This document shows, one piece after another, positions 23,134-60,361 of a stretch of 64,000 bases of DNA. The notes under the pieces were generated by a model, which saw nothing but the letters and a program-made list of their open reading frames with translations, was not told the origin of the DNA and made no database searches. The stretch covers positions 3,667 to 67,666 of the forward strand of contig JADFLW010000007.1 of NCBI GenBank assembly GCA_022564195.1. The letters run 5' to 3'. A program made the translations under genes and the position numbers. This DNA comes from Patescibacteria group bacterium (GTDB lineage: Bacteria; Patescibacteriota; Microgenomatia; UBA1400; Chisholmbacteraceae). Each line of letters opens with the position of its first letter. The first letter of the stretch is position 1.

Positions 23134-25475
23134 TCGTCTCTTTCTATCCTGATTTCGATTGTGATGTTCTCAGCTTTTCTGGGGAAAGTTTTTAGTCTTG
23201 CTGGCAGCGCTTCCGGTGTGATCTTGACCTCTGCCTTAGAAAAATTCGGCAACGATCCCAGGTACTTTTCGACAAGCTGTGGATGCTTTCCAGTGAGCTT
23301 GCGTTTTATCTCCTGTTCTTCAATTCTAGGAATCAATACCGCCTTGTAGACAACCGTTATCCTTGCCAATCCATCCTGGAACTCCACTTCTTTCACTTCT
23401 GCGAAACTTTCATCTTCCTGGAGCCTGAAGTCTTGTGGGATCGCCTCGCTTGATGCAAGGCGCAAAATCTGGTTGTAGTCTTCGTCATCATATGCTAGCG
23501 TTGTTATTTTCGCCTTGATTTTCGCTGAGACAGTCTGGGCCTCCTCTCCGACTTCTCCACTTACTTCGCTTGATAGTACTTCTATTTCTACCCCATCAAC
23601 GAGTACTTTTCTTCCAGGTCCTTCTTGACTTTCCAACTCGTTTGCCGCTTTCTGTTTCAGCTCTTGTTTGAGCTGGTTCAGGAGGTCATCGATATCGTTT
23701 TTGGCAATGGCCTGAATCTCTCGACTCGTCCCGCCGCTGATATTGCTCTCGTTTTTGGCATCGTATGAAGCAGTGGAAAACGCCTTCAAGGTAAAGTCCG
23801 TGTCGGCGGGAAGGTTGTATTCTGTTCCGATCGCCGTTGCTGTTATCGATGCTTTGGCCTTCCCGAATGTCGTCGTCACGGCCTCATCTGACTCCTGGGA
23901 ACTGGCCGAAGCCACCGATACCTCGCTATCTAGAGAAAATGCGAGTTTGTTTGGTCCAACGAGCATTGTCCCTGCAGCGAATGTTTTTGCTGCGGATGTC
24001 TTGTTATAGACCGATACTTCCCCTTTGGCTTTTTCTCCGACCAGTTTGCTGCCCGTCGTCTCTTTTTCTTTTTCTCCTTCGAGTTCCATCCCGACGATTT
24101 TTCCAGGTATCCGATTTTCTGCGGCAACAACTTGGTTGCTCTTAGGATCGATGGTGATGATGAGCTCCGTTTCGAGCGTTTTGGGTCTGACGTAGAGCAC
24201 GATTTGGGCTCTTGGTATTGTCCAATATCCGTACATTACCGCTGCTGCGCTGAGCACAAAGAACGCTATCACAATACCAATCGTCATCTTTAGCCTCGAG
24301 TCTAACAGGTCGCTTGGCCGAGGAATCCTTAATCTTGGAAGACGCATCATGCGGGGAATCATGGATGTGAGACTTATCAATTTCGCGCTCCATGCTTCTT
24401 TCCCTTCGGGGGTCTCAACACTTACTTCTTCTTTCGCTTGTTCTTCTGGGCTCGGTGGTGTTCTCGGTTTTGCTTCCTCTTCTTTGGGTTTCTCTTCTTT
24501 GGGTTCCTCTTTCTTCGCAACTTCTTGGGCAACATCGACATCAGTTTTGAATCCTATCTCCTCTGCTGTGGGAATCGTTTCTTCTGGAAGCGCTTCTTTT
24601 CCTTCCACCTCTGGTGGAGCCTCTTCTTTTTCCTCTTTCTCTTTTTCTTCCTCTTCGATTATTTCGAATCCTAACGCCTTGGCAGCCTCCGCCCCTCCCC
24701 CAATTGCCACGGCCTTGATTGTCACCTGCTTCTCCAACACCTCAACTTTTGGAAAATGGAGAAACGGGAGCTTCTCAAGCCAGTCGCAGGAGAGAAGGTT
24801 TTGCTTGAGACTTTCGAGATCAAGCGTGCCATTGAAAAGCAACATTCGTGACGGCATATTCTCCTCTATCTCAAAACGCGCCAGTCCTTCTTCAACATCG
24901 GCACCAATGTCTTCGCTTCGGGATACCGTTTGGCTTCCTAGAATTTTCCCTACGTTTACGAGGGTAACCTGAATCTCTGATTCGGTCACAAGAATCAAGA
25001 TTGCGGTTGGTGGCGTGCCTTCTTGCTGTTTGAGTAAATGAACGATGGCTTCGCTGGTCACAACGAATCCTATTGGTTCGAATTCAAGCTTTTCCGAAAT
25101 CCGTTTGAGGATTTTGGCATAGTCCTTTGTAATGGTCTCTCCCGCCACCCAACTTTCTTGCAGGCCGAAGATGACTTTGTTCGGTTCTGGTTCTGCATCG
25201 GCAAGGGCTTTCTCGAGTGATGCGTCAATTGCCGTGAGCAGCGAGTCAATTGAGTCTTTTTCTGTCTTCCATTCTTCTGTTGCTCCTAACTTTACGATTT
25301 GCGTTTGGCCATCCACAACCTGCCAGACAGCAGTGGTCACGGTTTCTGTCCCGATTTCAATTGCCAAGAATTGCTCTTGCGTTTTTTCTTTCGTGGTGAA
25401 TTTTGATAAGATGTTCGGAAGATTCATATTTTCACCAACACAAATCCACTCTTTAAGCGGTTGTCTATTTTTCAT
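23130..25475 (-). CDS. actin-like ATPase (PilM/FtsA-like) fused via an E/K-rich linker to a PilN-like TM segment and a large extracytoplasmic domain
   Basis: N-terminal LAIEIGTETVTT...VAIGGGAEAAKALGF matches the actin-fold start and C-terminal GGG motif of FtsA/PilM. An acidic/lysine low-complexity region (EEEEKEKEEKEE...) follows. Then RPSDLLDSR plus a TM helix (IGIVIAFFVLSAAAVMY) resembles the PilN N-terminus, and a ~370-aa C-terminal domain follows. Confidence 0.5.
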   Translation of the reverse strand: MKNRQPLKEWICVGENMNLPNILSKFTTKEKTQEQFLAIEIGTETVTTAVWQVVDGQTQIVKLGATEEWKTEKDSIDSLLTAIDASLEKALADAEPEPNKVIFGLQESWVAGETITKDYAKILKRISEKLEFEPIGFVVTSEAIVHLLKQQEGTPPTAILILVTESEIQVTLVNVGKILGSQTVSRSEDIGADVEEGLARFEIEENMPSRMLLFNGTLDLESLKQNLLSCDWLEKLPFLHFPKVEVLEKQVTIKAVAIGGGAEAAKALGFEIIEEEEKEKEEKEEAPPEVEGKEALPEETIPTAEEIGFKTDVDVAQEVAKKEEPKEEKPKEEEAKPRTPPSPEEQAKEEVSVETPEGKEAWSAKLISLTSMIPRMMRLPRLRIPRPSDLLDSRLKMTIGIVIAFFVLSAAAVMYGYWTIPRAQIVLYVRPKTLETELIITIDPKSNQVVAAENRIPGKIVGMELEGEKEKETTGSKLVGEKAKGEVSVYNKTSAAKTFAAGTMLVGPNKLAFSLDSEVSVASASSQESDEAVTTTFGKAKASITATAIGTEYNLPADTDFTLKAFSTASYDAKNESNISGGTSREIQAIAKNDIDDLLNQLKQELKQKAANELESQEGPGRKVLVDGVEIEVLSSEVSGEVGEEAQTVSAKIKAKITTLAYDDEDYNQILRLASSEAIPQDFRLQEDESFAEVKEVEFQDGLARITVVYKAVLIPRIEEQEIKRKLTGKHPQLVEKYLGSLPNFSKAEVKITPEALPARLKTFPRKAENITIEIRIERDE

Positions 25476-28958: not shown

Positions 28959-29594
28959 TCATGGCTCGACTTGGACCGTTCGTTGGACGGTTCGTGATTT
29001 TCCGGACCGACTTGTAGACTCAATGGTTATCGTCCTGGTGCCTTCGGGAAGAATCAGTGATTGACTGAATGATCCGTCTGGGTCAATCGATACCTGCTGA
29101 TTGTTGATTGTCAGTGTCGCCTGAGGATCGGTTCTTCCTGAAACTTCCACCGCTGCTTTCACTCGCTCTTTTTCTTGGGGGCTTTCAATCTTAAGCGGTG
29201 GAGCGGTAGTAAGCAGTCGGTACTGAAAGAAAAAGTAAGAAGCAAATGCTACGGATAAGACTAGTAGTACCCCTACCACTGTTGTTTTCGGCGTCCAGAG
29301 TGATCGAGGCTTTATTGCCTGCTGCGTTAAGCTTCTCGGTATGACCTGCCCTTTCACATCTTGGTCGTAGTCACGACGGAATACTGCAAGCGCTTGCTGA
29401 GGATCTACGCCTATCATTTTGGCGTAGTTTCGGATAAATCCTTTGACAAACGCTGCTTCCGGAAGCTTGTTAAAATCGTTGTCCTCCAGGGCTTTGAGAT
29501 ATTTCGCGTCGATTTTGGTCTTTTCCGCAAGCTCACGCCTCGTGAGTTTTTTCTGGAGGCGTGCGTTTTTCAAAATTTCACCAACGGTTTTCAT
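28959..29594 (-). CDS. RodZ-like HTH (XRE-family) membrane protein
   Basis: N-terminal HTH (TVGEILKNARLQKKLTRRELAEKTKI), then a single TM helix (VVGVLLVLSVAFASYFFF) and an extracytoplasmic domain. Confidence 0.65.
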   Translation of the reverse strand: MKTVGEILKNARLQKKLTRRELAEKTKIDAKYLKALEDNDFNKLPEAAFVKGFIRNYAKMIGVDPQQALAVFRRDYDQDVKGQVIPRSLTQQAIKPRSLWTPKTTVVGVLLVLSVAFASYFFFQYRLLTTAPPLKIESPQEKERVKAAVEVSGRTDPQATLTINNQQVSIDPDGSFSQSLILPEGTRTITIESTSRSGKSRTVQRTVQVEP

Positions 29595-29599
29595 GCTTT

Positions 29600-48687: not shown

Positions 48688-50355
48688 TTACCCAGCGGGT
48701 TTTTCTATGTTCGTTGATTCCAATAGTTCTTCTGACTCTTCAAGAACTTTTCTCCAGTTCCCGACGCGCCTGCCCAACGTCATCAACTCTGCCAGCTGGG
48801 TGATGCGCAAGAGGTTTGAGAGGTTAATATATACCACCATTCCGATGGCAAGGACGCTCACCGTCAGCAACAAGAGGTTTAGGGTTCTCGTGGTATCAAG
48901 GATGAAGCGGTCAATAATGCGCATCGGTATCCAGAGAAAAACTCCAGTCGCTGCGGTTGCGAACACCATTTTCATTATTGGAAGGATGAACTTGGAAGTG
49001 ATGATTTCAACTTTTCGATTTAAAAGCACAATGAGCAAGAAAGCGTGTACCAGTGTTGATGCTGCAAGGGCTAATCCTAGGCCGATGACGCCAAATCCCA
49101 TCGTCTGGGAAAAGAGGATGCTTAATGCAACGGTCAGTGCGGCTGCGATTGTCGCGGTGATCAATGGCGTTTTCGTATCGTGGAGCGCATAAAATGCTCG
49201 GGTTAAGACACCGGTAACGGCTTGGGTTGGAATCGCGAGTGCAAGGAATGCTACGGTTTTGCTCGTCAAGAGTGTTGCTTCCCATGGGAAGTTGCGGGCT
49301 CCAAAGGCGATACGAACGACCGGGAGTCGCAAAACGAGGATGATTGCGGCGGCGGGAAGAGAAAGATACAAGACTTGGTGAAGCGAGGATTGCAGCGTCT
49401 TTTGAAACTCTTCCTTTTTATCCGAGGATATTTCTGAACTCAGGGTCGGAAAGGCTGCTTGGCCGATTGTCGTCCCGAAGAGCGTCACCGGTAGTATGTA
49501 TAACTGTCTTGCAAAATTGAAAATCGTTAATGACCCCGCCGCCAGCGCTGTGGCAATAAAGACTGCAATGAAGCGCTCTACTTGTCCAACCGCCAACGTG
49601 AGTGACCTTAATGGCATGAGCTTTCTTATCTCTCTCACTCCGGGATGACTCCAGTTGAAGCGAAGGCTATAGCGAAACCCCAATCTTCTTGCAAGTGGGA
49701 TTTGGATGAGAAAGTGCAACATTGCCCCAATGACCCCTCCGATTGCAGGACCGAAAATCTCAAAATGTGGGGTGAGGAATATGATGCCGCCGATTATCCC
49801 TAGGTTGTACACAACCGGCGCGAGTGCTGGAACGAGAAACCGTTGGTGCGACTGGATGATTGCCGTGAGGAATCCTGAGATGGCAAAAAATACTTGAGCA
49901 AAAAGCGTGATTCGCATGAGCTTTGTCAACAGCATTATGTTTTCTGGGTCTAGTGATGGTGCGATGATGCTCGATAAAATTCCGCTTGCGAGAAAGACGA
50001 TTACAACGAGAACCAAAAATACGGCTGTGATTCCATTCATTGTGGCGGAGGCGAGCATTGAAGCCTCTTTTTCTCCTTTTTTCAGGTAGTGTGAAAAAAC
50101 TGGGATAAAGGCTGCTGAGAGAGCCCCAATGATTAAAAGTTGAAAGAGGGTATCCGGGATGACGAAGGCGGCAAAATATGCGTCCAATTGTGATTCGCGA
50201 CCGCCAAAAAATGTTGCTGCCAGTAAGCGATTGCGGATTAAACCTAGCAATCCTGAAGTTGCGTATGCGGCCATAATGATAAACGCCGCCGAAAGGATGT
50301 TTGTCTGGCGACGCATCATGAGAAGCCGGCTGTTTCTCAATAAGTTCTTTACCAT
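48688..50355 (-). CDS. murJ: lipid II flippase MurJ (MviN)
   Basis: 555 aa with ~14 TM helices and a MurJ N-terminal pattern (ILSAAFIIMAAY, RLLAATFFGG). Confidence 0.85.
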   Translation of the reverse strand: MVKNLLRNSRLLMMRRQTNILSAAFIIMAAYATSGLLGLIRNRLLAATFFGGRESQLDAYFAAFVIPDTLFQLLIIGALSAAFIPVFSHYLKKGEKEASMLASATMNGITAVFLVLVVIVFLASGILSSIIAPSLDPENIMLLTKLMRITLFAQVFFAISGFLTAIIQSHQRFLVPALAPVVYNLGIIGGIIFLTPHFEIFGPAIGGVIGAMLHFLIQIPLARRLGFRYSLRFNWSHPGVREIRKLMPLRSLTLAVGQVERFIAVFIATALAAGSLTIFNFARQLYILPVTLFGTTIGQAAFPTLSSEISSDKKEEFQKTLQSSLHQVLYLSLPAAAIILVLRLPVVRIAFGARNFPWEATLLTSKTVAFLALAIPTQAVTGVLTRAFYALHDTKTPLITATIAAALTVALSILFSQTMGFGVIGLGLALAASTLVHAFLLIVLLNRKVEIITSKFILPIMKMVFATAATGVFLWIPMRIIDRFILDTTRTLNLLLLTVSVLAIGMVVYINLSNLLRITQLAELMTLGRRVGNWRKVLEESEELLESTNIEKPAG

Positions 50356-50381
50356 CTTTCGGGAAGTATAGCGGTTTGCTC

Positions 50382-50410
50382 TTGAGAATTAAAGGTGGAA
50401 ATGGTAGAAT
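50382..50410 (+). promoter_or_regulatory. sigma70-like promoter for rpsT: TTGAGA, 17 nt spacer, then TGg-TAGAAT (extended -10)
   Basis: Read from the sequence at 50382-50387 and 50402-50410, about 64 nt upstream of the rpsT ATG. Confidence 0.45.
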
Positions 50411-50473
50411 AGTACAACTTTAGTTGGAAATCTGAACCACAAAAATATTGTTCAGGATTTCAAGTTTGTTTTT

Positions 50474-50716
50474 ATGCCTATTACGAAATCGGCAAGAAAA
50501 GCCTTGCGTCGCGACCGTCGACGAACCCAGGTGAATAAACCAATCCGTACGCGGATGATGAGGCTTCTACGTACTGCTTTCGATGAGCCTTCTGGTCAAA
50601 ATATTGCGGCAGCGTTCTCTGGAATTGACCGTGCCACAAAAAAGCGTATTTTCCATCAGAATCGGGCGGCGCGTCTGAAATCTCGTCTCATGAAGGCAAC
50701 ACGGCGGACAAAATAA
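50474..50716 (+). CDS. rpsT: 30S ribosomal protein S20
   Basis: 80 aa starting MPITKSARKALRRDRRRTQVNKPIRTRMMRL, matching the S20 N-terminus pattern. Confidence 0.85.
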   Translation: MPITKSARKALRRDRRRTQVNKPIRTRMMRLLRTAFDEPSGQNIAAAFSGIDRATKKRIFHQNRAARLKSRLMKATRRTK

Positions 50717-50825
50717 TCTCTCCGTTTTCGCTTCCGAACACTTCGGCGGCCTGGTCGGCGGATTTCCGCTCAGAGAGCTTCAATCTTTTGACAACCTTAT
50801 CCCTGGAACCTATACTTAGATTGTC

Positions 50826-51425
50826 ATGGCTGCCCGCAGACCGAATATTGATCTTTTGGCCCGAGAAGACTTCTCTCAACGCGCCCTTGGTCGTTTATTG
50901 CTTTGGGTTCTGACAGTCGGACGCTTCATTGTCATTTTTACGGAGCTTATCGTCATTGCTGGTTTCATTACCAGAGTTTTTCTTGATCGAAACCTTCATT
51001 CCGTCAACGAGGATCTTGTTGAGCAAAAAACGATTCTTGCCTCCTATCAACCTGTGGACCTTCGTTTCCGTCAAGTCCACCAGCAACTTCAATCGTATTC
51101 TCGCATTAATGAAGATCGGTTTGACATTTCAAAACTGTTGGATGATCTGATTACAATCGCGCCTCTTGATATGCGTTTTGAATCTTTGCATATAGATCCG
51201 CAGTCCGTGGATATTGTCGCCATTGCGCTTTCTCCAAGTGGCTTTTCGGCGTTTTTGACCCAACTCCAAGCGTTTCCAGACTTTAGCGATTTGGTTTTGG
51301 AATCTGTCGAAACTGGCAGTGCCCGAGATCCAAGCATCAAGTTTCGACTTACTGCGGACTTTAAGATCGCGGCAGTTCCAACCAGACCCGCGGAGACAAA
51401 TGTTTCTGGAGAAGCTATTGAGTAA
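50826..51425 (+). CDS. pilN: type IV pilus assembly protein PilN-like
   Basis: N-terminal PNIDLLAREDF, which resembles the INLLP motif. A single TM helix is followed by an extracytoplasmic domain; 199 aa. Confidence 0.6.
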   Translation: MAARRPNIDLLAREDFSQRALGRLLLWVLTVGRFIVIFTELIVIAGFITRVFLDRNLHSVNEDLVEQKTILASYQPVDLRFRQVHQQLQSYSRINEDRFDISKLLDDLITIAPLDMRFESLHIDPQSVDIVAIALSPSGFSAFLTQLQAFPDFSDLVLESVETGSARDPSIKFRLTADFKIAAVPTRPAETNVSGEAIE

Positions 51426-51436
51426 GGAGATTTGTT

Positions 51437-52099
51437 ATGGCTGCTGACTATCAGAAAACCTTCCGGCGCTATGGTCGTTTTTACAAAGGCGCGCGTAAGT
51501 ATATGCAGCGGAAGGAGGTTCTTGTTTCGACGAATGTCATGCTCACCCTTTTCGCCATTTCGTTCTTTGCGGTTTTTGCTATTCGGCCTACGGCATTGAC
51601 GATATCCAGGCTTTGGAGAGAAATTAAAGACAAAAAAACCGTTCAAGCAGTGCTTGAGGAGAAGATTGGTGATCTTTTAGAAGCGCAATCAGTACTAGTA
51701 TCGCTAGAGAATGATCTGGTTCTCCTTGATCATGCTATCCCTCCCACTGTGGAATTTTCTCGGCTGGTGCGTCTCGTCGAATACCTTGCTTCTACTCATG
51801 GATTGCAGATGCCTTCCAACCGTTTCAATGACATCGAGCTCTATGTTTCAGAAGAGACCGCGACCGCGTCTGCGGCGCAGATTGAAACACATTTGTTTAC
51901 CCTGGCGCTGAAGGGGTCATTTTCCGAGATACGGTCATTTGTTGCTGATCTTGAACGACTCGATCGCTTAATTTCCATCACCTCTGTTTCTGTCCAGCCC
52001 TCAAGAAAACAGGTGCGTGAAGGTGTCTTTATCTTAGAACTAGGATTGGATGCCGAGGCTTATTCATTTCCTGGAGGATCTCAATTAGACCAACAATAA
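51437..52099 (+). CDS. pilO: type IV pilus assembly protein PilO-like
   Basis: A TM helix, a coiled coil, and a C-terminal domain; its size and position follow pilN. Confidence 0.5.
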   Translation: MAADYQKTFRRYGRFYKGARKYMQRKEVLVSTNVMLTLFAISFFAVFAIRPTALTISRLWREIKDKKTVQAVLEEKIGDLLEAQSVLVSLENDLVLLDHAIPPTVEFSRLVRLVEYLASTHGLQMPSNRFNDIELYVSEETATASAAQIETHLFTLALKGSFSEIRSFVADLERLDRLISITSVSVQPSRKQVREGVFILELGLDAEAYSFPGGSQLDQQ

Positions 52100-52108
52100 T
52101 ACCAGGTT

Positions 52109-52453
52109 ATGCCATCACGCGACCGCCTACAACGCCAGCTCTTGGAACTTTCCATTGTCACGCTTGTGACTATTATCATCTGGACAGGCTATGAGGTTTA
52201 TAATGCACTCACCCAGCCAGTTGAGACGAGGGTGACGAAAGCTGAACTTCAACCCCTTCCTTCTTCATTGGATCTTGAACAGTTCGATCCATTGCGGGAT
52301 CGCCTTGTCATTGATGATGAGGCGATCGCTCGCTTTTCTTTTTCCTCCGATGAATTCCCTGAGGCCCCGGTAGTGCCAACTCCAACACCAACCGCTCCTT
52401 CCCCGGAAGCTACCCCTTCCTCCGAGGCCACACCTTCCGCCTCAACTCCATAA
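52109..52453 (+). CDS. small membrane protein with a Pro/Thr/Ser-rich C-terminal tail (pilus- or glycosylation-associated)
   Basis: An N-terminal TM helix (LELSIVTLVTIIIWTGY); the C-terminus is PTPTPTAPSPEATPSSEATPSASTP. Confidence 0.45.
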   Translation: MPSRDRLQRQLLELSIVTLVTIIIWTGYEVYNALTQPVETRVTKAELQPLPSSLDLEQFDPLRDRLVIDDEAIARFSFSSDEFPEAPVVPTPTPTAPSPEATPSSEATPSASTP

Positions 52454-52490
52454 ATGCCCAGTACCTTTCTCAATTTGCAGTTGAGAAAGG

Positions 52491-53297
52491 TTGAGGTTTA
52501 GTGCTAGGATTATTTCGATGCTGAAGAAACGGATCCCCACCATTCTTGGAATTCTCTTACTTATGGCGGGGATCACTGCTGGTGTTTATCTCGTTGAACT
52601 TGGTCCGCAACCACTCATCACCAAAGCCACTCCGGAAGTTGCTCCATCCCCACTTCCCGTTACCGATATTTCTGATGAGCCTGCCGGATCTGAAAGCCAA
52701 TTCTCCTTGGAATCTTTTCCGCAACCTTCAGTCGAAGAAGGCACAGTTACCATTGACTCACCCGGAGAAGGAGAGGCGATTAATACCCAACTTCCAGAGT
52801 TCTTTGGTGAAGGGCCCCCGGGAACAACGATAGAAATTACCCTTGAATCCCAGCACGAAATCCAAACCACAGTCGCCGTTGATACCACTGGGCAATGGTC
52901 ATGGGTTCCTGATACTGCCGTCGAGCCTGGTGAACACCTCCTGACCCTCAGATGGATCGATACAGGAGGCATTACTCGCACACTCACTCGGCGGTTCGTG
53001 GTTTTTGCGCAAGAAGAGAGCTCTCTGCCCGCCTTTGAAGCAACGCCTTCTGCTGTAACCCCCACTCCCACACCCGTTGAGCTTGCCGCTGTTACCCCAA
53101 CGCCAACCCCAATACCCACGCTGGCACCTGCCGCAACGCCGACTCCCATCCCCCCGACTCTTACACCTACGCCGGTGGCCACTGAGCCCGCACTTCCCGT
53201 TCCGGGAACGGGAATGCTAAGCGTTTGGATTATTTTTGCTGGTATTGGCCTTGCTATTTCGGGGGCTTTCCTTACGCTTCACAACCGAACGTCCTGA
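52491..53297 (+). CDS. surface protein with an Ig-like middle domain, a Pro/Thr-rich stalk and a C-terminal sorting-signal-like segment
   Basis: N-terminal signal/anchor; the PT-rich tract is TPTPTPVELAAVTPTPTPIPTLAPAATPTPIPPTLTPTPV. The C-terminus reads LPVPGTG, then a hydrophobic helix (MLSVWIIFAGIGLAISGAFLTL), then HNRTS. Confidence 0.55.
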   Translation: MRFSARIISMLKKRIPTILGILLLMAGITAGVYLVELGPQPLITKATPEVAPSPLPVTDISDEPAGSESQFSLESFPQPSVEEGTVTIDSPGEGEAINTQLPEFFGEGPPGTTIEITLESQHEIQTTVAVDTTGQWSWVPDTAVEPGEHLLTLRWIDTGGITRTLTRRFVVFAQEESSLPAFEATPSAVTPTPTPVELAAVTPTPTPIPTLAPAATPTPIPPTLTPTPVATEPALPVPGTGMLSVWIIFAGIGLAISGAFLTLHNRTS

Positions 53298-53417
53298 TCC
53301 ACTCGCTCTCCCTTCCTTTTGGCTGTTACAATACCTCTATCCACCTTTTCCCGACAAGCTTGCGCTGTTGGGATTCGGAGGATCTCGCATAATTTGTAGA
53401 ATGATAAGAGGAGCTCG

Positions 53418-54686
53418 ATGCGCGTAGGGATCGTTGGTGCTGGATTTGTCGGCTTGACTTGTGCATATCGGCTGGCACAAGCGGGTGTCGAAGTCGAGCT
53501 CTATGAGGCCGCAAGCCACAGCGGAGGTTTAGCCAGTGGGTTCTCTCTTCCCGGATGGAAGTGGCCACTGGAGCAATTCTACCATCATATCTTTTCCAAT
53601 GATCGCGCAATCATCCGTCTTTCTCGCGAAGTTGGCTGGCCTCCGATTTTTTTCCGACCGACAACCTCCATCTTTTTCAATGGTCGGATGTATCCGTTTG
53701 ACTCGGCTTTCCATCTTCTCCGCTTTCCTCAGCTTCCCCTCCATGCGAAGCTTCGCATGGGTATCGTGCTCGGGTTTCTTAAGCTTTCCCCGTTTTGGAA
53801 GCCCCTTGAGCGTATCCCGGCACATGACTTTTTGATTCAGACAATGGGTGTTCGTGGTTATGAGGCAATTTGGCAGCCCCTTTTGGTTGGCAAGTTCGGT
53901 CCTTGGGCCCGCGACGTTAATGCCGCATGGTTTTGGGCAAGGATTCATAAACGGACTGCGCGGTTAGGATATTTCCGTCGCGGTTTTCAGGGACTGGCTA
54001 ATCGACTCCATGAATCCATCGTAAACAATGGAGGCGGTATTCATCTTCACTCACCCGTTTCAGCCATCCGTAAAGCAGGCGCACATCTTGCCCTTTCCTC
54101 AACGTTGGGAACGGAGCGATTCGATCGAGTCATCGTCACGACGAGTACGCCGCTGTTTTTAAAGATGGTTAAGGGCTTGCCGAGCCGTTATCGATCGCGG
54201 CTTGGGCGGCTGCGGTCTCTGGATGCGTTGGTGGTGATCCTCATTCTTAAAACACCGGTTATGGATGGTGTGTATTGGCTGAATGTTACTGACCAGCGTC
54301 TTCCCTTTGTGGGAGTGATGGAGCACACGAATATGATTGACCCGAAATACTATGGCGGAAATCACATTGTCTATCTTGGCACGTATCTTCCTCCCGACCA
54401 CCGATACTTTCTGCTGTCGAAAGATGCAGTTGTCCGGTTGGCTATACAGCAACTTAAAGCACTCACACGGAATTTTGACGAATCCGATATCGTGGAAACT
54501 CGCGTCCATCGCGGGCGTGGAGCCCAACCTATTATTCCTGTCAACTATTCTCGACTTCGTCCAACGATGGAAACGCCAATTGATCATCTTTTCCTTGCAA
54601 ATATGAGCCTGGTCTATCCATGGGATCGCGGGACGAATTATGCCGTCGAGTTAGGGGAAAGGGCCTACCGGACTCTACTTTCATGA
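53418..54686 (+). CDS. FAD/NAD(P)-binding oxidoreductase of the Glf/amine-oxidase superfamily (UDP-galactopyranose mutase-like)
   Basis: Rossmann N-terminus (RVGIVGAGFVGLTCAYRLAQAG). HHIFSNDRAI resembles the HIFHTNDK motif of Glf. GYEAIWQ resembles GYTEKQW. Confidence 0.5.
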   Translation: MRVGIVGAGFVGLTCAYRLAQAGVEVELYEAASHSGGLASGFSLPGWKWPLEQFYHHIFSNDRAIIRLSREVGWPPIFFRPTTSIFFNGRMYPFDSAFHLLRFPQLPLHAKLRMGIVLGFLKLSPFWKPLERIPAHDFLIQTMGVRGYEAIWQPLLVGKFGPWARDVNAAWFWARIHKRTARLGYFRRGFQGLANRLHESIVNNGGGIHLHSPVSAIRKAGAHLALSSTLGTERFDRVIVTTSTPLFLKMVKGLPSRYRSRLGRLRSLDALVVILILKTPVMDGVYWLNVTDQRLPFVGVMEHTNMIDPKYYGGNHIVYLGTYLPPDHRYFLLSKDAVVRLAIQQLKALTRNFDESDIVETRVHRGRGAQPIIPVNYSRLRPTMETPIDHLFLANMSLVYPWDRGTNYAVELGERAYRTLLS

Positions 54687-56395
54687 AACGTATGGGGCGA
54701 GTGTTTGTTTTTTTTAAGTCTTCTCATTTAAGCCTCTACTCTGCTGGTTTAATTCTCCTCACCGCTTTGGGTGGGTTTTTACGCTTCTATAGCCTTGATT
54801 GGGACTCGGGACTTTTTTTTCATCCAGATGAGCGCAACATTGCCGCTGCTGTCTCGCGGATTCACTTCTTCGATCAACTCGATCCCGGTTTTTTCGCTTA
54901 TGGTGGACTGCTCATCTATACCTATAGAGCTGTGGGTGAGCTTGTCTCCTTCATTACTCAAGATCCCTCTTGGGTCTCTTCATGGGGCAATATCAACATC
55001 ATAGGACGGTTTACATCGGCACTTTTTTCAACCTTGACTATTCCTGCTGTGTACCTGCTCACAAGAACCGTGTTTGAAAAGAAGATTCTTGCTCTTTTTG
55101 CAAGCTTGATCGCGGCTTTTACTGTGAGCTTTATCCAAACCGCCCATTATGCAACGACTGAGAGTCTTTTGACTTTCCTTTCCGTTGTCCTCGCTCTTTT
55201 ATCACTTCGGTTGCTCAGAAGACCCACTCTTCCGTCTTATCTTGTCTGTGGGCTTGTTTATGGACTGGCAGTGGCAACCAAAATGAGCGGTTTGTCAATT
55301 CTTGTCTTTCCACTTACCGCCCATCTTCTTGTCGTTTTTGGTCAAGCGCGCAGCTTGCGAGTGTTTTTTCATAACGGTTTGTTGCTGATTGCTTTTCTTG
55401 CGATCAGCGGTCTTGTTTTTGTTGTTTTTTCTCCCTATACGTTTTTGGACTGGGGTGCTTTTATGGAGTCGATGCGCTATGAATCAAGGGTGGCAACAGG
55501 GAAATACTCCGTCCCTTACACCCTGCAATTCACCCATACACTGCCGTACCTATTCCAGCTAAAAAATCTGTTTTGGCAACTGGGGCCTATTGCTTTCTTC
55601 TCCATCTTTGGATTCGTCCTGCTTCCCTTCGTTTGGGGCCGTAGAAATCCTGCGAAGCTTCTACTCTTTTTTTCCTTTCCGACCATCTATTTTCTTTATG
55701 TCGGTTCCTGGCATGCCAAATTCATCCGTTTCATGGTTCCGATTTTGCCATTCTTGATTATTGCTGCAAGTGTTGTGCTTTTTTCTCTTTACTCAAGACG
55801 GAAGCTTGTTGGAGGTGGGTTCATCGTTTTGCTTTCAGTTTCGACCGTTCTTTGGGCCCTTGCCTTTTTCTCCATCTATAGAAGAGAACAAACACGTATT
55901 GCGGCATCAAGATGGATATACCAACATATTCCTTCTGGCAGCAGGATCTTCGGCGAGCATTGGGATGACGGTCTGCCGGTTTCTTTACCTCACTCGGATC
56001 TCTCTCCCTCTCGATATGATATCGAGCAACTCACCATCTACGAGCCCGATACCGAAGAAAAGCTTGACTACTTTGCAGAAAAATTGTCTCTGGCCGATTA
56101 CCTTGTGATTAACAGCAGAAGGCTTTATGGCACCTTGATTCATCTAGAAGAGCGCTATCCTCTCACGAGTCGGTACTACAGCCTTTTATTCTCCGGGAAG
56201 CTTGGGTACGAGAAAGTGGCGGAATTTACCTCTTACCCGTCTCTCTTTGGGGTGACGATCAATGACGATGCAAGTGAGGAGACGTTCCAAGTCTATGATC
56301 ATCCAAAAGTCATGATCTTTGCCAAAACGAGACTGCAGACCCAAGATCGTTTCGCTGAACTGCTTCGTGATGAGGTGTTCCCGACCCTTCGGTAA
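54683..56395 (+). CDS. GT-C fold glycosyltransferase, PMT_2/ArnT-like (GT39/GT83-type, polyprenyl-phosphate-sugar dependent)
   Basis: Multi-pass membrane protein with an FFHPDERN first-loop acidic motif. Its ATG overlaps the upstream stop codon (ATGA). Confidence 0.6.
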   Translation: MKRMGRVFVFFKSSHLSLYSAGLILLTALGGFLRFYSLDWDSGLFFHPDERNIAAAVSRIHFFDQLDPGFFAYGGLLIYTYRAVGELVSFITQDPSWVSSWGNINIIGRFTSALFSTLTIPAVYLLTRTVFEKKILALFASLIAAFTVSFIQTAHYATTESLLTFLSVVLALLSLRLLRRPTLPSYLVCGLVYGLAVATKMSGLSILVFPLTAHLLVVFGQARSLRVFFHNGLLLIAFLAISGLVFVVFSPYTFLDWGAFMESMRYESRVATGKYSVPYTLQFTHTLPYLFQLKNLFWQLGPIAFFSIFGFVLLPFVWGRRNPAKLLLFFSFPTIYFLYVGSWHAKFIRFMVPILPFLIIAASVVLFSLYSRRKLVGGGFIVLLSVSTVLWALAFFSIYRREQTRIAASRWIYQHIPSGSRIFGEHWDDGLPVSLPHSDLSPSRYDIEQLTIYEPDTEEKLDYFAEKLSLADYLVINSRRLYGTLIHLEERYPLTSRYYSLLFSGKLGYEKVAEFTSYPSLFGVTINDDASEETFQVYDHPKVMIFAKTRLQTQDRFAELLRDEVFPTLR

Positions 56396-56406
56396 CGAGC
56401 GTTTTT

Positions 56407-58554
56407 TTGACCGCTTTGCATCTTTCATCTTCCTCTATACAATATGTGGGCATTCGTATGCATGAGCTGGTGAATACATTTTCCTGGTGGGCTGTTCTTT
56501 CCGGTCTTGGGATTTTGGCCTTTCCTATCACCTATTGGCTGTTTGGTCGATTTTGGGATCGTGGCTGGGCATTTGCAAAGATCTTAGGGCTTGGGCTGCT
56601 CACGTACTGGGTGTGGATTGTGGGAAGTTTGCGAATTCTTGCATTCGAAACATTCACCCTCTGGATTGGTATTGTTCTTATTGGATATCTTTCCTATCTC
56701 GTTTGGTCCAAGCATCAAGAATCTTTATGGAATTTTGTTCAGGATCATTGGCGTTTGATCGTGTTTGAGGAGTTCCTTTTTGGTATCGGTCTCTTGTTCT
56801 GGTCTTGGGTGCGGGCTCATCAGCCGGACATCAATGGCCTTGAAAAATTCATGGATTTCGGATTTGTCAATTCTCTTTTACGTACACGCTTCTTTCCTCC
56901 GCCCGATATGTGGCTAGCGGGGGAGACCATCAACTATTACTACTTCGGACATCTAGTAGTTGGGGTTGTTACCAAACTCTCAGGGATTTCCTCGGCTGTG
57001 ACGTATAACCTTATGATCGCCACTCTTCTGGGACTTGCTTTTACCGGGGCTTTTTCCTTGGGCGGAACATTGGCTCAGCACGTCATTCCGACTTTGACAC
57101 GGAAGCGGCGATTCAGCTTCATGATTCTGGCTGGTTTGACTTCTGGATTGGTGTTCACGTTCGCTGGCAATTTACACACTGTTGTCACCGTCATCTCCAA
57201 GGGAGCTGATTCATACTGGTACCCCGATGCCACTCGCTACATTCCCTACACCATCCACGAGTTCCCGCTCTACAGCTTCGTTGTTTCGGATTTGCATGGC
57301 CATGTTAACAATATTCCCTTTGTCCTTTTGATGCTGGCACTTTTGCTTAGCTTTCTTCTGGAACATGGAAATCGGTGGCGTTTTTCTTTCCGTTCGCCAT
57401 CGGTCTATTGGCGCTTGATTGCCTTGGGTCTGACGTTTGGGATTCTTTACATGACCAACGCCATGGACGCGCCAATTTATCTTTTTCTTGTTGGTATGAG
57501 CTTTCTTGTTTCGATAATTGGCAAGCGTCCATTAAAAAAAGCTGTTTTGGCCTCCGGGCTCGCTTTTGGGATCATTGTGTTCTCTGCTTTCGTCCTTTCT
57601 CTTCCGTTTCATCTTTCTTTTACCCCTTTCACTCAAGGTGTTGCTTTCGTGGAGGCTCGTTCTTCCATCCTGAAGCTTTTGGTTCTGTGGGGTTTCTTTT
57701 TATTTGTCGGTTTGGTGTTTGTTCTTCTTGTTCTCCAACAACGTTTCCAGCGCCATTCTCGCAAGCCTTTTCTCAATGTCTTGCTTCGTCGGTTCATGCT
57801 TGCTGTCTTTGCAACCGCAGTTGTCTTGGTCGTCATTCCAGAATTTGTTTACTTCAAAGACATCTATATTGCTGAATTTCATCGGGCGAATACGATGTTC
57901 AAATTGGTGTATCAGTCTTTCGTTCTGATGTCTTTGATGACAGGGCCAGTGTTTGTTGTGTTGCTCTGGCGTTTTACCACTTCAAGTGGTCGGCTTTTGC
58001 GCTTTGGGCTTTTGGCTTTGGTTTTCGCATTTATTGTTGGCTTGGGGAGTGTGTTGATGTACCCGTATTTTGCGGTGCACTCCTACTACAATCGCCTGCA
58101 AACGCTTCAGGGTCTCGATGGTCTATCTTGGATGGCGCGTCGCTATCCTGATGATTATGCTGCTATTTCTTGGCTGCGTGATGAGGTTTCCGGTCAACCG
58201 GTTATCGCGGAAGCCGTGGGCGAGAGTTATACCGATTTTGCGCGGGTTTCGGCGAATACCGGATTACCCACGGTTCTCGGGTGGCGGGTGCACGAATGGT
58301 TGTGGAGAGGCAGCTTTGATGAGCCGGGCCTTCGCACGGGTGAGGTTGAGAGGCTTTATACCACAGCGGATCTCCACGATGCCTGTGCCATTATTGAAAA
58401 GTATAGGATTGCGTATGTTTTCGTTGGTGCTTTGGAGCGCCAACAATACTCTAGACTCAATGAAGACAAGTTTAGCCGGATTGGAAACGAAGTGTTCTCT
58501 CAAGGAGATACACGGATTTATAGGATGCGCACTCCTTGTGGTGTCTCTTCCTAG
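56407..58554 (+). CDS. DUF2298 (Chlor_Arch_YYY) domain membrane protein, GT-C-like
   Basis: 715 aa, highly hydrophobic, with the hallmark INYYYFGH motif and a C-terminal soluble domain. Confidence 0.6.
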   Translation: MTALHLSSSSIQYVGIRMHELVNTFSWWAVLSGLGILAFPITYWLFGRFWDRGWAFAKILGLGLLTYWVWIVGSLRILAFETFTLWIGIVLIGYLSYLVWSKHQESLWNFVQDHWRLIVFEEFLFGIGLLFWSWVRAHQPDINGLEKFMDFGFVNSLLRTRFFPPPDMWLAGETINYYYFGHLVVGVVTKLSGISSAVTYNLMIATLLGLAFTGAFSLGGTLAQHVIPTLTRKRRFSFMILAGLTSGLVFTFAGNLHTVVTVISKGADSYWYPDATRYIPYTIHEFPLYSFVVSDLHGHVNNIPFVLLMLALLLSFLLEHGNRWRFSFRSPSVYWRLIALGLTFGILYMTNAMDAPIYLFLVGMSFLVSIIGKRPLKKAVLASGLAFGIIVFSAFVLSLPFHLSFTPFTQGVAFVEARSSILKLLVLWGFFLFVGLVFVLLVLQQRFQRHSRKPFLNVLLRRFMLAVFATAVVLVVIPEFVYFKDIYIAEFHRANTMFKLVYQSFVLMSLMTGPVFVVLLWRFTTSSGRLLRFGLLALVFAFIVGLGSVLMYPYFAVHSYYNRLQTLQGLDGLSWMARRYPDDYAAISWLRDEVSGQPVIAEAVGESYTDFARVSANTGLPTVLGWRVHEWLWRGSFDEPGLRTGEVERLYTTADLHDACAIIEKYRIAYVFVGALERQQYSRLNEDKFSRIGNEVFSQGDTRIYRMRTPCGVSS

Positions 58555-59642
58555 TTCGCGTTGCTGGTCATGTTTTCGTAGAATAATGAGTCCACGTAGC
58601 TGTGGACCTCGTCCCAACTCCCGCCTCTACCAATGAGCACCCATTGTCCATCATATTCTGCCGGTGGCGGATTGACGAGTAGGCCCTCTTCTCCAGTTTC
58701 CTGGTCTTGCTCCTTAAGAATACCGTATCGCAGGTTTTCTCTCCGGGGTTGTATGGCAAGTTTGGCAAGGCTTACGTATTCGGCTTCACCAAGATCCGTC
58801 CTTACTGATCCTGTGTATGTTTGGACTAACTCTTTGATTTTTGTCGGAGAGAGTATGGTTTCCAAACTCAGTAGCTTGTTTTTGAATGCCGCGAGTACTT
58901 GCTGTTGGCGTTGAGCGCGGGCAAAGTCTGTTCCCTGAGGTCCCTTAGCGTTGCGGGATCGAACGTACTTTAAGGCTCGCTCTCCACTCATGTTTTGTGA
59001 ACCGCTATCGAAGCGCAGATGTTCGTAGCGAAGCTCCTCGGGCTCTGCGTCTTCCATCCCGGGGATGGGATATTTGTAATCGTCAAAGGTTTCGGGAACA
59101 TTGATTTTTATCCCTCCAACGAGATCGATGGCGTGTTTGAAGCCGTCAAAATCGATGCTGACCGCGTAATGGACGGGTTGGCCAATGATCTCTTCCACCG
59201 CAGCTTTAGCAAGCACCAGTCCCCCGCCTTCTTGTCTCTGCTCGCCGTAGTAGTAGGTCGCGTTTATCTTGGTTTTCAATGAATTGATCCAGATATCCCT
59301 CGGGATTGAGAGAACCAGGCTGTCGGTTGAGGCTAAATCGACTGAGACGACGATGATGCTATCGGTCAACTCTGCTCCTTTGTGATCAACACCGCCCATT
59401 CCCAACAGTACGATATTCGTTCTTGAGCGGGTTGAGCGGAGCACACCTTCCGGATTCTTCACTAGAGAAAAGACAGTTGCCGGTCCGCGGGCAAGCTTTA
59501 CTACCATGGTCAATGCGGGTCGGATCGCCGCATAGACAGCAACGATCACCGCTGCCAGTGTGGTTGTTACGATCAGCGTGCGTACCGCGGTTCGGTGTCT
59601 CGTTAAGCGTCGTTTCAGCTTTCCTACCCAGTACTTTCTCAT
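58551..59642 (-). CDS. LCP family (LytR-CpsA-Psr) glycopolymer phosphotransferase
   Basis: TM anchor followed by NIVLLGMGGVD...SIIVVSVD...LSIPRD...KINATYYYG...VSIDFDGFKHAIDLVGGIKINV, the LCP core. The likely ATG at 59642 forms an ATGA overlap with the tpiA stop. Confidence 0.85.
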   Translation of the reverse strand: MRKYWVGKLKRRLTRHRTAVRTLIVTTTLAAVIVAVYAAIRPALTMVVKLARGPATVFSLVKNPEGVLRSTRSRTNIVLLGMGGVDHKGAELTDSIIVVSVDLASTDSLVLSIPRDIWINSLKTKINATYYYGEQRQEGGGLVLAKAAVEEIIGQPVHYAVSIDFDGFKHAIDLVGGIKINVPETFDDYKYPIPGMEDAEPEELRYEHLRFDSGSQNMSGERALKYVRSRNAKGPQGTDFARAQRQQQVLAAFKNKLLSLETILSPTKIKELVQTYTGSVRTDLGEAEYVSLAKLAIQPRRENLRYGILKEQDQETGEEGLLVNPPPAEYDGQWVLIGRGGSWDEVHSYVDSLFYENMTSNAN

Positions 59643-60361
59643 GGTGTTTCTGTGGTCTTTATTATCGTCTGGTTGGCCATTCTTATCATCTTCAGCCATT
59701 CTGCGGCGTTGAGACTTGCGCTTCCCGGAAGAACGCCGTCAATGAGCGGTTCTTCTAAAAATATGGCAATGTTGTGGCTTTTCACACTGCCTCCGTAGAT
59801 CACGGTTGGGGCCTCCGTCTCTTTTTTTATTTTGACTATAGCTTCTTTCACTTCATCAATTGGCGCTGGCTCTCCTTTCCCGATGGGGCCGATTTGCTTG
59901 CTGATTGCCTCGGGGGGCTCGTACATGAGTATTGACTTATTGATCATCCCCTCATCCAGTGCATTCAGCTGTCGTCTCCAGTTGTCTGCGTCTACGGCAA
60001 TGATGGGGGTAATGCCGTTATCAAGTGCTTGAACGGCTTTCTGCGCTACTTTAATCTCGGTTTCTTGGAAATAGCGGCGGCGTTCCGAATGCCCCAAAAT
60101 TGTGTATTCTACCAAACTCCTCATCATGCGGGCGGTTACTTGGCCGGTGTAGGCTCCATCACCATAGGGTGAAAGATCCTGGCAGCCGAGAGTGAGTTCT
60201 GACATCTGGTCTCTGAAAAGCGTGAGGTGGATGAAGGATGGGCAGAGCACCACTTTCAATCGTTTATCAATTGTGGGTTTCTCCTTCTTCACCTCCTCAA
60301 TCCAGGAACGGGCCTCTTTTAGGGTTTTGTTTGCCTTCCAGTTGCCGATGAGGTATTTCAT
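59639..60361 (-). CDS. tpiA: triosephosphate isomerase
   Basis: GNWKAN, GHSERR and YEPPEAI motifs are present. The likely ATG is at 60361; the track begins at a TTG at 60370. Confidence 0.9.
   Translation of the reverse strand: MKYLIGNWKANKTLKEARSWIEEVKKEKPTIDKRLKVVLCPSFIHLTLFRDQMSELTLGCQDLSPYGDGAYTGQVTARMMRSLVEYTILGHSERRRYFQETEIKVAQKAVQALDNGITPIIAVDADNWRRQLNALDEGMINKSILMYEPPEAISKQIGPIGKGEPAPIDEVKEAIVKIKKETEAPTVIYGGSVKSHNIAIFLEEPLIDGVLPGSASLNAAEWLKMIRMANQTIIKTTETP

Follow-up and report, generated by a model that had tools for sequence, protein, structure and literature searches.

The window, a stretch of 64,000 nucleotides from an uncultivated Microgenomates (CPR) bacterium, contains a block of co-directional genes on the plus strand that begins with the conserved rpsT gene for ribosomal protein S20 (50474-50716) and is flanked by the divergently oriented murJ (48688-50388, minus strand). 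After rpsT follow genes for homologues of PilN (50826-51425) and PilO (51437-52099), gene X (52109-52453) and gene Y (52518-53297), and the gaps between pilN, pilO, X and Y measure 11, 9 and 64 nt. The PilN homologue matches the Pfam PilN model with 34.8 bits (cut-off 22.8), and its N-terminal peptide MAARRPNIDLLARE contains an INLLP-type PilM-binding peptide (NIDLL), with the N-termini of 39 PilN homologues showing [IV]NL[LIV]. Similarly, the PilO homologue, named 'type 4a pilus biogenesis protein PilO' by NCBI, reaches 33.3 bits with Pfam PilO (cut-off 22), and its profile matches PilO of M. xanthus (3JC8, E 7e-12) and of P. aeruginosa (2RJZ). Judged from these sequence matches, the PilN and PilO homologues are authentic. 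The initial annotation did not mention these two genes directly upstream of Y. Gene X, the third gene of the operon and present in 39 loci, encodes a 114-residue bitopic protein with a P/T/S-rich tail for which no homologue is known and no match was obtained in Pfam or PDB. In a complete Microgenomates genome, the main type IV pilus locus includes PilM, and PilN and PilO are not among its listed components (PMC7143001), which fits their being encoded at the separate locus studied here.

Y is a short form of a Microgenomates-wide envelope protein for which 59 homologues and 42 loci were collected. It is the conserved fourth gene of the cassette, since PilN, PilO, X and Y occur together in 39 of the 42 loci, across phylum-level lineages with varying flanks; each locus has one Y orthologue, at a fixed position, even at about 30% identity. 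Among the flanking genes, murJ and, beyond the cassette, genes for FAD amine-oxidase-like proteins, PMT_2 glycosyltransferases, DUF2298 proteins and LCP-family proteins are conserved in 19 to 39 loci each, and all of these have wall or glycan functions. No sortase gene was found within 10 kb of Y in any of the 42 loci.

The open reading frame that ends at 53297 had been assigned a TTG start at 52491. This start is probably wrong, as the homologues and the NCBI record begin at the ATG at 52518 (MLKKRIPT...), which is preceded by AGGA about 10 nt upstream. The resulting product of 259 residues, followed by a stop codon, is identical to MCH7951713.1, annotated as 'hypothetical protein IH980_03185'. 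The description of this product as a surface-type protein with an Ig-like domain, a Pro/Thr-rich region and a tripartite C-terminus is confirmed. In an AlphaFold2 model, built from an alignment of 57 sequences, an N-terminal hydrophobic helix (residues 7-27; 52536-52598), which is either a signal peptide or a signal anchor, is followed by a disordered segment (residues 28-77) and an Ig-like beta-sandwich (residues 78-162; 52749-53003) modelled with a pLDDT of 95-98. In the 268-residue version of the reading frame, Pfam assigns residues 95-166 to Big_13 (E 1.1e-7, 32.7 bits, cut-off 27). Residues 163-232 are again disordered and comprise a stalk (residues 163-225; 53004-53192; pLDDT 48-63) of which Pro and Thr make up 49%, or 71% together with Ala and Ser, and then the heptapeptide LPVPGTG (residues 226-232; 53193-53213; DNA cttcccgttccgggaacggga), a putative sortase recognition site. 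The model closes with a helix (residues 233-258), corresponding to a hydrophobic segment of residues 233-254 (hydropathy 2.23) and the tail HNRTS (residues 255-259; together 53214-53294). At least 90% of the family sequences share P7, T8, G11 and A37. The conserved N-terminal helix would also suit a permanent membrane anchor. A type IV prepilin N-terminus was considered and dropped because there is no G(F/M)TLxE motif cleavable after its G, and a YSIRK-type signal-peptide motif was dropped because its spacing does not match. Foldseek comparison of the model with PDB returned generic Ig, CopC, SiiE and RbmA-type sandwiches that give no functional lead; PilP was absent among the top 50 matches listed, and neither Y nor X showed sequence similarity to PilP in Pfam or PDB searches.

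The C-terminal signal of Y and its family

The C-terminus of Y reads ...ATEPA-LPVPGTG-MLSVWIIFAGIGLAISGAFLTL-HNRTS, and the peptide spanning the candidate recognition site is ATEPALPVPGTGMLS. Y thus has the 22-residue helix and the short tail, here with one Arg, that are expected behind a sorting motif, and its motif Gly lies 27-29 residues from the end. LPXTG proteins usually span the wall with such a Pro/Thr stalk, placed ahead of the motif.

Microgenomates-wide, members of the family end in [VIL]-P-x-[A/S/P/T]-G followed by a helix and, in most cases, a basic tail. The pattern [LIVM]Px[TS]G was present in the last 45 residues of 49 of 97 non-identical family C-termini, compared with 2.25% of the internal 45-residue windows of the same 97 proteins, which served as background, and when A and P were also allowed before the Gly (Px[TSAP]G), the numbers were 74 of 97 and 4.25%. 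The motif Gly was situated 23-40 residues from the C-terminus, and K or R occurred within the last 10 residues in 83 of the 97 cases. The C-terminal signal of Y is no chance feature. A profile search of 1.84 billion representative sequences gave 24,431 matches at E ≤0.001, a number that is uninformative on the size of the family because giant adhesins with Big_13 repeats swamp the matches. We examined 42 full-length representatives at 50% identity, drawn from the retrieved single-stretch matches together with three earlier family members. Position 1 was V, I or L and position 2 was P in 38 of the 42 each, position 4 was A (16), S (16), P (6) or T (4), and 32 of the 42 had a basic tail. Pro at position 2 has been lost in some lineages (LEDAG, LTDSG, IEPPG), and about 15-25% of the family members have no basic tail at all. 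A segment xLTPT directly after the motif Gly is specific to the family, and a Gly inside the C-terminal helix is conserved.

LPVPGTG had been called non-canonical, but it holds two overlapping pentapeptides: VPGTG fits the canonical [LIV]PxTG, whereas LPVPG, which MAFFT places in the column of the family motif, has Pro directly before Gly, an arrangement that to our knowledge is not known for any characterised sortase. As to which of the two is in register, an ungapped alignment to relatives with PVPVTG and an alignment with a two-residue insertion of TG fit equally well. In the Chisholmbacteria-type clade P227, P229, G230 and G232 are invariant, and family-wide at least 90% of the sequences have G230. 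The Thr of VPGTG can vary, as close relatives of Y have I or M at this place (LPVPGIG in P0003, VPVPGMG in P0008). Before the motif Gly, at the place of the would-be acyl donor, the family tolerates an unusual range of residues, mostly A, S, P or T and in rare cases I, M, V or G.

When C-terminal fragments of 45-50 residues were scanned with NCBIfam, the LPXTG anchor model TIGR01167 gave 12.3 bits for Y and 15.7 and 15.1 bits for homologues, all below its cut-off of 15.9, and Microco_LAVTG matched with 14.2 bits. The sorting-signal models matched were of the sortase type, except for one match of 9.6 bits to an ArtA-dependent S-layer glycoprotein model, and none of the PEP-, PGF-, GlyGly- or VPDSG-CTERM models matched any of ten C-terminal fragments at E values up to 10.

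Y is the sole open reading frame of the window with a C-terminal signal of the sorting type. Contrary to one of the outcomes that the initial annotation had named as refuting, other proteins of related genomes carry the same kind of signal: unrelated surface proteins, among them DUF11/DUF7619 proteins and proteins with PKD and cohesin domains, end in LPEAG, LPETG, LPDSG, LPKAG, LPATG or LPPTG and a helix. Most of these putative substrates have no basic tail. They resemble Y also at their N-termini (KK-hydrophobic-VYLVQ-polar-[KS]xA).

The sortase and its 765-residue neighbour

The gene at 22402-23133 (minus strand) encodes a protein of 243 residues, listed by NCBI as 'sortase' (MCH7951685.1). 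It is a genuine sortase, with an E value of 2e-23 and 82.9 bits for Pfam Sortase PF04203 (cut-off 26.6) and 58.5 bits for TIGR01076 (cut-off 39.35), and there is indeed no other sortase in the window. The proposed catalytic His in VIFGH(156)S and Cys in LITC(225)TPPG are invariant in 120 homologues, as is the Arg in YLRR(234)G, and in an alignment with 4D7W, H156, C225 and R234 fall on the catalytic residues, so that the triad is intact. The protein has an N-terminal membrane helix and no C-terminal helix; in 110 of the 120 homologues just 8-12 residues follow the catalytic Arg.

That the enzyme belongs to a poorly characterised class was supported by our classification, in which all NCBIfam class A-F cut-offs (140-166) were missed: scores and cut-offs were 56/160 for class C, 51.9/140 for SrtD, 50.3/160 for class E, 48.5/165 for class D, 28.7/166 for class F and 13.9/158 for GN, and no class A or B model was among the matches listed. 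Class C sortases, which polymerise pilins, give it the best scores in PDB (4D7W, E 2.5e-11) and NCBIfam (56 bits). However, this score is about one third of the class cut-off, the C-terminal membrane helix of class C is lacking, no pilin-type substrate adjoins the gene, and a DP[WFY] lid motif was not seen by eye. [quoted passage not shown] No description of substrates, motif or gene partners of the Microgenomates sortase was found in the literature searched.

Directly before the sortase gene lies a gene for a membrane protein of 765 residues (23130-25427, minus strand), the stop codon of which overlaps the sortase start (ATGA). This neighbour was found in 7 of 7 contexts, and the order alaS, 765-residue protein, sortase, ruvX, mltG holds while the identity of the 765-residue protein varies from 28% to 100%; the sortase is thus a core syntenic gene. 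In an AlphaFold2 model (mean pLDDT 86), a cytoplasmic ASKHA domain (residues 19-251; pLDDT about 95) is followed by an acidic disordered linker, a helix (residues 377-403) and a beta-rich ectodomain (residues 406-761). The protein had been read as a PilM/PilN-like fusion, of which only the actin-like fold of the N-terminal domain survives. Its top Foldseek match was PilM of P. aeruginosa (5EOY, E 4e-8, TM 0.45-0.48); however, other ASKHA proteins (EutJ, sugar kinases, PPX) match equally well or better, and FtsA matches too. The ectodomain is weakly baseplate-J-like and unlike PilN. At the sequence level, the Pfam models for PilM, GspL and FtsA did not match the N-terminal domain at E values up to 10, the two halves of the protein gave only weak Pfam matches to Baseplate_J and RH3, and neither a single sequence nor a four-sequence profile found a match in PDB. 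Since these searches returned no PilM or PilN match, we reject the sequence-level assignment. The protein has the topology of GspL, with an actin-like cytoplasmic domain, one membrane helix and an outside domain, and PilM is the best structural match of its N-terminal domain, but it differs from both in lacking a specific Pfam match, in its low TM-scores and in an outside domain that is not PilN-like.

Proposed wall anchoring of Y and a possible role with PilN and PilO

Taken together, the relaxed LPXTG-like signal and the fourth place in the pilN-pilO operon suggest that the unclassified sortase of the lineage itself probably attaches Y to the wall. Pairing with the sortase at 22402-23133 is suggested by co-occurrence in the same lineage and on the same contigs: the two genes are about 30 kb apart in the window, and in a second genome sortase and substrate are likewise about 30 kb apart on one contig (CAVPHZ010000001.1; L004, L008). 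We give about even chances to the reading that Y is a wall-anchored protein of the sortase type that works with PilN and PilO. The N-terminal hydrophobic segment would export Y, which would display one Ig-like domain on a long, perhaps glycosylated, Pro/Thr-rich stalk. The single conserved sortase of the lineage would then process Y at its C-terminal signal, with Cys225 attacking within LPVPGTG, most simply between Thr and Gly of VPGTG or alternatively between the second Pro and Gly of LPVPG. The C-terminal helix and tail would be released and the end of the stalk transferred to the amine of a peptidoglycan precursor. In a cell without outer membrane or secretin, Y would thereby become a wall-fixed partner of the alignment proteins PilN and PilO. 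This is its most likely role because it is the conserved fourth gene of rpsT-pilN-pilO-X-Y, and it is the conservation of this operon in 39 of 42 loci that associates Y with PilN and PilO and makes Y possibly a part of the type IV pilus machine.

Anchoring by the sortase might also serve an ordinary adhesin or wall glycoprotein that has no part in the pilus, its location next to pilN and pilO being only historical within an envelope supercluster. We consider this rather unlikely. It would accord with the wall and glycan functions of the wider neighbourhood, with a generic Ig domain that is not specifically similar to PilP or another pilus component, and with a Pro/Thr stalk near PMT-type and LCP genes that recalls GspA of Actinomyces oris. 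However, the four genes from pilN to Y run in one direction with little space between them and stay joined in 39 of 42 loci while their flanks vary, and Y is syntenic at a fixed position, whereas adhesins are normally variable. Unlikely, too, is that Y remains unprocessed as a membrane hairpin with both terminal helices embedded, Ig domain and stalk outside, and P-x-x-G as a helix cap or turn. Such a hairpin would explain why the would-be scissile residue is so poorly constrained, including Pro, Ile and Met, why the LPXTG-anchor model stays below threshold and why xLTPT immediately behind the motif Gly is family-specific, and the conservation of P7, T8 and G11 (at least 90%) and of the Gly in the C-terminal helix would suggest contacts between helices. 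Yet the whole class has retained [VIL] and P in positions 1 and 2 and Gly in position 5, at the canonical distance from the C-terminus, and the same signal is found on surface proteins that are unrelated to Y and have classic wall-protein domains. A hairpin with both ends in one membrane would also hardly account for a Pro/Thr stalk about 60 residues long, and the sortase that the lineage has preserved is catalytically intact and must have substrates.

We regard it as highly improbable that the signal is read by an enzyme of the exosortase, archaeosortase or rhombosortase type. Exosortase systems are known to have motifs that resemble VPDSG or contain PG in front of a helix, and the basic tail that LPXTG signals typically have is missing from several of the putative substrates. 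However, nearly all model matches were sub-threshold anchors of the sortase type and none was a PEP-, PGF-, GlyGly- or VPDSG-CTERM model, neither the window nor, as far as annotated, 48 related loci encode such an enzyme, and the lineage is monoderm-like and sortase-rich (PMC6744442).

Going further than wall anchoring with PilN and PilO, a speculative scheme that we consider distinctly unlikely would be that in monoderm Microgenomates a lineage-specific sortase with a relaxed acyl-donor position (A, S, T or P before Gly) pins the pilus platform covalently to peptidoglycan through the stalk of Y, the conserved partner of PilN, PilO and the small protein X, replacing the PilP-secretin connection of diderms, and works with its invariable neighbour, a membrane protein of PilM fold, so that sorting and pilus assembly would be physically coupled.

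A large part of bacterial diversity belongs to the CPR (Patescibacteria), whose members live in attachment to other cells and rely on type IV pili. The Y locus bears on how, where an outer membrane is lacking, their pilus machine passes through the wall and is held there, and it offers a conserved candidate substrate for the Microgenomates sortase, a family-level motif [VIL]Px[ASPT]G and two conserved gene modules open to tests with peptides and recombinant enzyme, for which the organism need not be cultivated. If the link to the pilus is true, Y would be the first case of a type IV pilus component that depends on a sortase.

Comparison with known systems

Y resembles wall proteins of the S. 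aureus protein A type in its export signal, folded domain, Pro-rich stalk, pentapeptide, helix and short charged tail, and the enzyme resembles SrtA as a membrane-anchored Cys transpeptidase with a His/Cys/Arg triad. Unlike in that system, the position before Gly is almost free in [VIL]-P-x-[A/S/P/T]-G, the enzyme misses the class A-F cut-offs and the anchor model is narrowly missed, the tails of the family are often uncharged, and Y is a core syntenic gene of a pilN-pilO operon.

In the pilMNOPQ operons of diderms, the position directly after pilN and pilO that Y occupies is taken by genes such as those for PilP and PilQ, or PilW in Thermus. PilP links PilN and PilO to the outer layer of the envelope and, like Y, combines a membrane tether with a long disordered linker and a beta-sandwich. 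In contrast, Y has neither sequence nor specific fold similarity to PilP, there is no secretin, and its outer attachment is proposed to be a covalent sortase link to peptidoglycan and not a protein-protein contact.

In the SrtA-GspA-LcpA pathway of Actinomyces oris, GspA is a glycosylated substrate of the housekeeping sortase. Although GspA has no homology to Y, the glycosylation of which is only putative, both systems combine a Ser/Thr/Pro-rich protein, in our case a candidate substrate, with LCP-family and glycosyltransferase genes, which in the Y loci lie nearby.

Gene Y and its family

The plus-strand open reading frame ending at position 53297 is genuine, and the TTG start at 52491 listed in the initial annotation is probably unused, given that every homologue starts at the equivalent of ATG 52518 (MLKKRIPT...), about 10 nt downstream of an AGGA. 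The gene (52518-53297, +), hereafter Y, encodes a putative surface protein of 259 residues identical to NCBI MCH7951713.1, a record on a 67,953-bp contig. The window has a G+C content of 48%, contains ribosomal, RNA polymerase and chaperone genes, and has its nearest relatives in Candidatus Chisholmbacteria (Microgenomates group, Patescibacteria). AlphaFold2 modeling of Y with an alignment of 57 sequences predicted a helix (residues 7-27), a disordered segment (28-77), a beta-sandwich (78-162; pLDDT 95-98), a second disordered segment (163-232) and a C-terminal helix (233-258). Pfam recognized one Big_13 Ig-like domain (E 1.1e-7, over the gathering score), and a Foldseek search against the PDB returned generic Ig-like sandwiches only and no specific fold relative. 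Pro and Thr make up 49% of the stalk, and the C-terminus reads ...ATEPA LPVPGTG MLSVWIIFAGIGLAISGAFLTL HNRTS.

A word-index search found 59 relatives of Y, and a genome scan located family Y, its Microgenomates homologues, at 39 loci in Chisholm-, Levy-, Collier-, Shapiro- and Woesebacteria and in unnamed Patescibacteria. As diverse representatives we used 42 sequences, namely 39 full-length members from a profile search (50%-identity representatives) and three family members known before. A typical member has about 450 residues with FN3-like, CarboxypepD_reg-like and Big_13 domains; the window protein and several close relatives constitute a short form lacking the first two (about 190 residues). 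This deletion is common to several independent sequences, so the short form is a natural variant and no assembly error. Close relatives with 57-73% identity retain the missing residues (P0002, P0004, P0010-P0012, L007 and L008 compared).

The C-terminal signal

All family members share the same kind of end: after a Pro/Thr-rich stretch come a short motif with a final Gly, a helix of hydrophobic residues and a short tail. Among 97 non-identical family C-termini, 49 contained [LIVM]Px[TS]G and 74 a relaxed form, compared with 2.25 and 4.25%, respectively, of internal windows of the same proteins. The motif Gly lay 23-40 residues before the C-terminal end, and K or R occurred within the final ten residues in 83 of the 97. 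In the diverse representatives, position 1 was V, I or L and position 2 was P in 38 of 42 each, and position 4 was A (16), S (16), P (6) or T (4), giving a family motif of [VIL]-P-x-[A/S/P/T]-G. The register in the window protein is ambiguous: MAFFT pairs LPVPG with VPVTG or VPAPG, and an ungapped alignment to the PVPVTG group pairs VPGTG with VPVTG. The Chisholmbacteria-type clade keeps P227, P229, G230 and G232 in every sequence and has T or S at residue 231, apart from I and M in two sequences. Both overlapping pentapeptides of LPVPGTG, described initially as non-canonical, resemble LPXTG, with VPGTG the more canonical in appearance.

When ten C-terminal fragments were scanned against NCBIfam, the sorting-signal models matched were sortase anchors, each just below cut-off, and one ArtA-dependent S-layer glycoprotein model at 9.6 bits; no PEP-, PGF- or GlyGly-CTERM model was found. 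For TIGR01167 (cut-off 15.9) the query scored 12.3 bits and homologues 15.7 and 15.1, and Microco_LAVTG gave 14.2 against a cut-off of 27.

Other proteins with such ends were found in about 830 kb of related loci, with the motifs LPKAG, LPEAG, LPETG, LPDSG, LPSAG, LPATG, LPPTG, LPPPG and shorter xxPG, in every case ahead of a helix. Among them were surface proteins of the DUF11/DUF7619 and PKD+cohesin kinds. Their N-terminal export segment resembles that of family Y (KK, a hydrophobic stretch, VYLV[QE], a polar run and [KS]xA), which suggests a common signal-peptide type. Unlike classical LPXTG signals, most of these proteins lack a basic tail. Putative sorted proteins with LPxAG, LPxTG or xxPG, a helix, an ...LLAL or ...LFAL end and no charged tail, some of them without a domain match, include L010 54-1196, L018 12783-14336, L033 628-1797, L001 12712-13506 and L003 12792-13343; in Levybacteria the motif has decayed to xxPGP. 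Y-like paralogues at L016 8852-10510 and L025 4176-5573, which have no PilN, PilO or X neighbours, carry VPKAG or VPKSG, a helix and an unusually long charged tail of about 20 residues.

The sortase and its partner

CPR and Microgenomates have been stated to encode sortases (PMC6744442, PMC7143001, PMC8672522), and PMC and bioRxiv searches returned no analysis of their substrates, motif or gene partners; the system proposed here is a sortase sorting system whose motif is relaxed and whose genomic partners are unusual. The open reading frame 22402-23133 (-) encodes a sortase (Pfam 82.9 bits, TIGR01076 58.5 bits) with an N-terminal helix. Its His156, Cys225 and Arg234, which correspond in alignment to the catalytic residues of solved sortases, do not vary among 120 homologues. 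In 110 of these the chain ends 8-12 residues after the catalytic Arg, so a class-C-type C-terminal anchor is missing. Class C enzymes are the closest solved relatives (E ~1e-11), and no NCBIfam class model reached its cut-off (C 56/160, SrtD 51.9/140, E 50.3/160, D 48.5/165, F 28.7/166), so that speaking of a poorly characterised class is fair.

The start codon of the sortase gene overlaps, in an ATGA, with the stop codon of the gene for a 765-residue protein (23130-25427, -). In all seven contexts compared, this pair is flanked by alaS on one side and ruvX/mltG on the other, with partner identity down to 28-36%. Sequence searches of Pfam and the PDB gave no match for the partner. Its AlphaFold2 model (mean pLDDT 86) comprises an actin-like cytoplasmic domain (19-251), a disordered acidic linker, a single membrane helix (377-403) and an outside domain that is rich in beta structure and weakly resembles phage baseplate J proteins. 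P. aeruginosa PilM was the top Foldseek match (E 4e-8, TM 0.45-0.48), and PPX/GppA, FtsA, EutJ and sugar kinases matched about equally well. Of the initial annotation as a PilM/PilN-like fusion, therefore, only an ASKHA fold with GspL-like topology holds, given the missing sequence match and the baseplate-J-like outside domain.

A membrane protein of 700-800 residues without a Pfam family always directly precedes the sortase (further copies: L004 5622-7988, L005 5722-8004, L006 5467-7857, L046 5001-7157, L047 5001-7145, L048 5001-7226), and some copies bear the annotation 'baseplate J/gp47 family protein'. As in the window, a distance of about 30 kb separates the sortase module from the Y cassette on a single contig of a second genome (L004, L008). 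A RodZ-like protein (HTH_25 plus Glucodextran_B Ig-like domain) adjoins ftsK at a conserved position (window 28959-29597 (-), L004 1571-2203, L005 2213-2848, L047 1345-1977), and the iterated family-Y profile picks up its Ig domain (E ~1e-16).

The PilN-PilO-X-Y cassette and the proposed role of Y

Upstream of Y, on the same strand, lie rpsT (50474-50716) and the genes for PilN (50826-51425), PilO (51437-52099) and X (52109-52453). PilN homologues have an N-terminal peptide of the INLLP type, a type known to bind PilM, and the identity of PilO is confirmed by a family profile that matches M. xanthus PilO (3JC8, E 7e-12). X is a 114-residue bitopic protein with its own P/T/S-rich tail; this single-helix protein has a conserved P-[IL]-x-P-x-[FL]-D segment, was found at 39 loci and matches nothing in Pfam or PDB. 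Of 42 loci encoding a Y homologue, 39 had the PilN-PilO-X-Y cassette, within a conserved envelope supercluster (window 48688-59738; L001-L045) of murJ (-), rpsT-pilN-pilO-X-Y, an FAD amine-oxidase-like gene, one to three PMT_2 glycosyltransferases, DUF2298 and an LCP (LytR_cpsA_psr) gene (-), an order recurring in 19-39 loci depending on the gene. Other lineages have one or two extra genes after Y, one coding for a second protein with an LPxAG-type signal.

In the simplest account, Y would be exported, and the lineage's core sortase would then recognize its C-terminal signal and transfer it to the wall, leaving the Ig domain on a Pro/Thr stalk. Given the operon lock with PilN, PilO and X across the whole class, Y most likely acts for the pilus alignment complex; its place in the operon is the one held by PilP and PilQ in diderm bacteria. 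In a complete Microgenomates genome the pilus genes, PilM included, reportedly lie together at a single locus whose listed components do not include PilN and PilO (PMC7143001), which fits their being encoded at the Y-type cassette. PMC and bioRxiv searches returned no type IV pilus machine with a sortase-dependent component. The Pam pili recently described in CPR use donor-strand exchange and are unrelated.

The sortase reading has weak points, as the residue before the Gly is free and may even be Pro, the anchor score is sub-threshold and basic tails are weak or absent. A main rival is that Y is an unprocessed two-helix membrane protein; the export segment shared with other signal-bearing proteins weakens the idea that the N-terminal helix is necessarily a permanent anchor. 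That a different sorting enzyme reads the signal is unlikely, nearly all the sorting-signal models matched being sub-threshold sortase anchors. The other main rival takes Y as a sortase-anchored wall glycoprotein without relation to pili, against which stands the linkage to pilN and pilO. X and Y both contain Pro/Thr/Ser-rich segments, so the neighbouring PMT-type enzymes might O-glycosylate them. Service of Y in the alignment complex is our preferred reading; its stronger version, a type IV pilus platform covalently pinned to the wall, we consider rather improbable.

The Microgenomates-type cassette was also found in MAG records named 'uncultured Gammaproteobacteria' or 'uncultured Pseudomonadales' (L013, L014, L015, L016, L022, L028, L030, L034, L040, L042, L044, L045), whose taxonomic labels are probably wrong.
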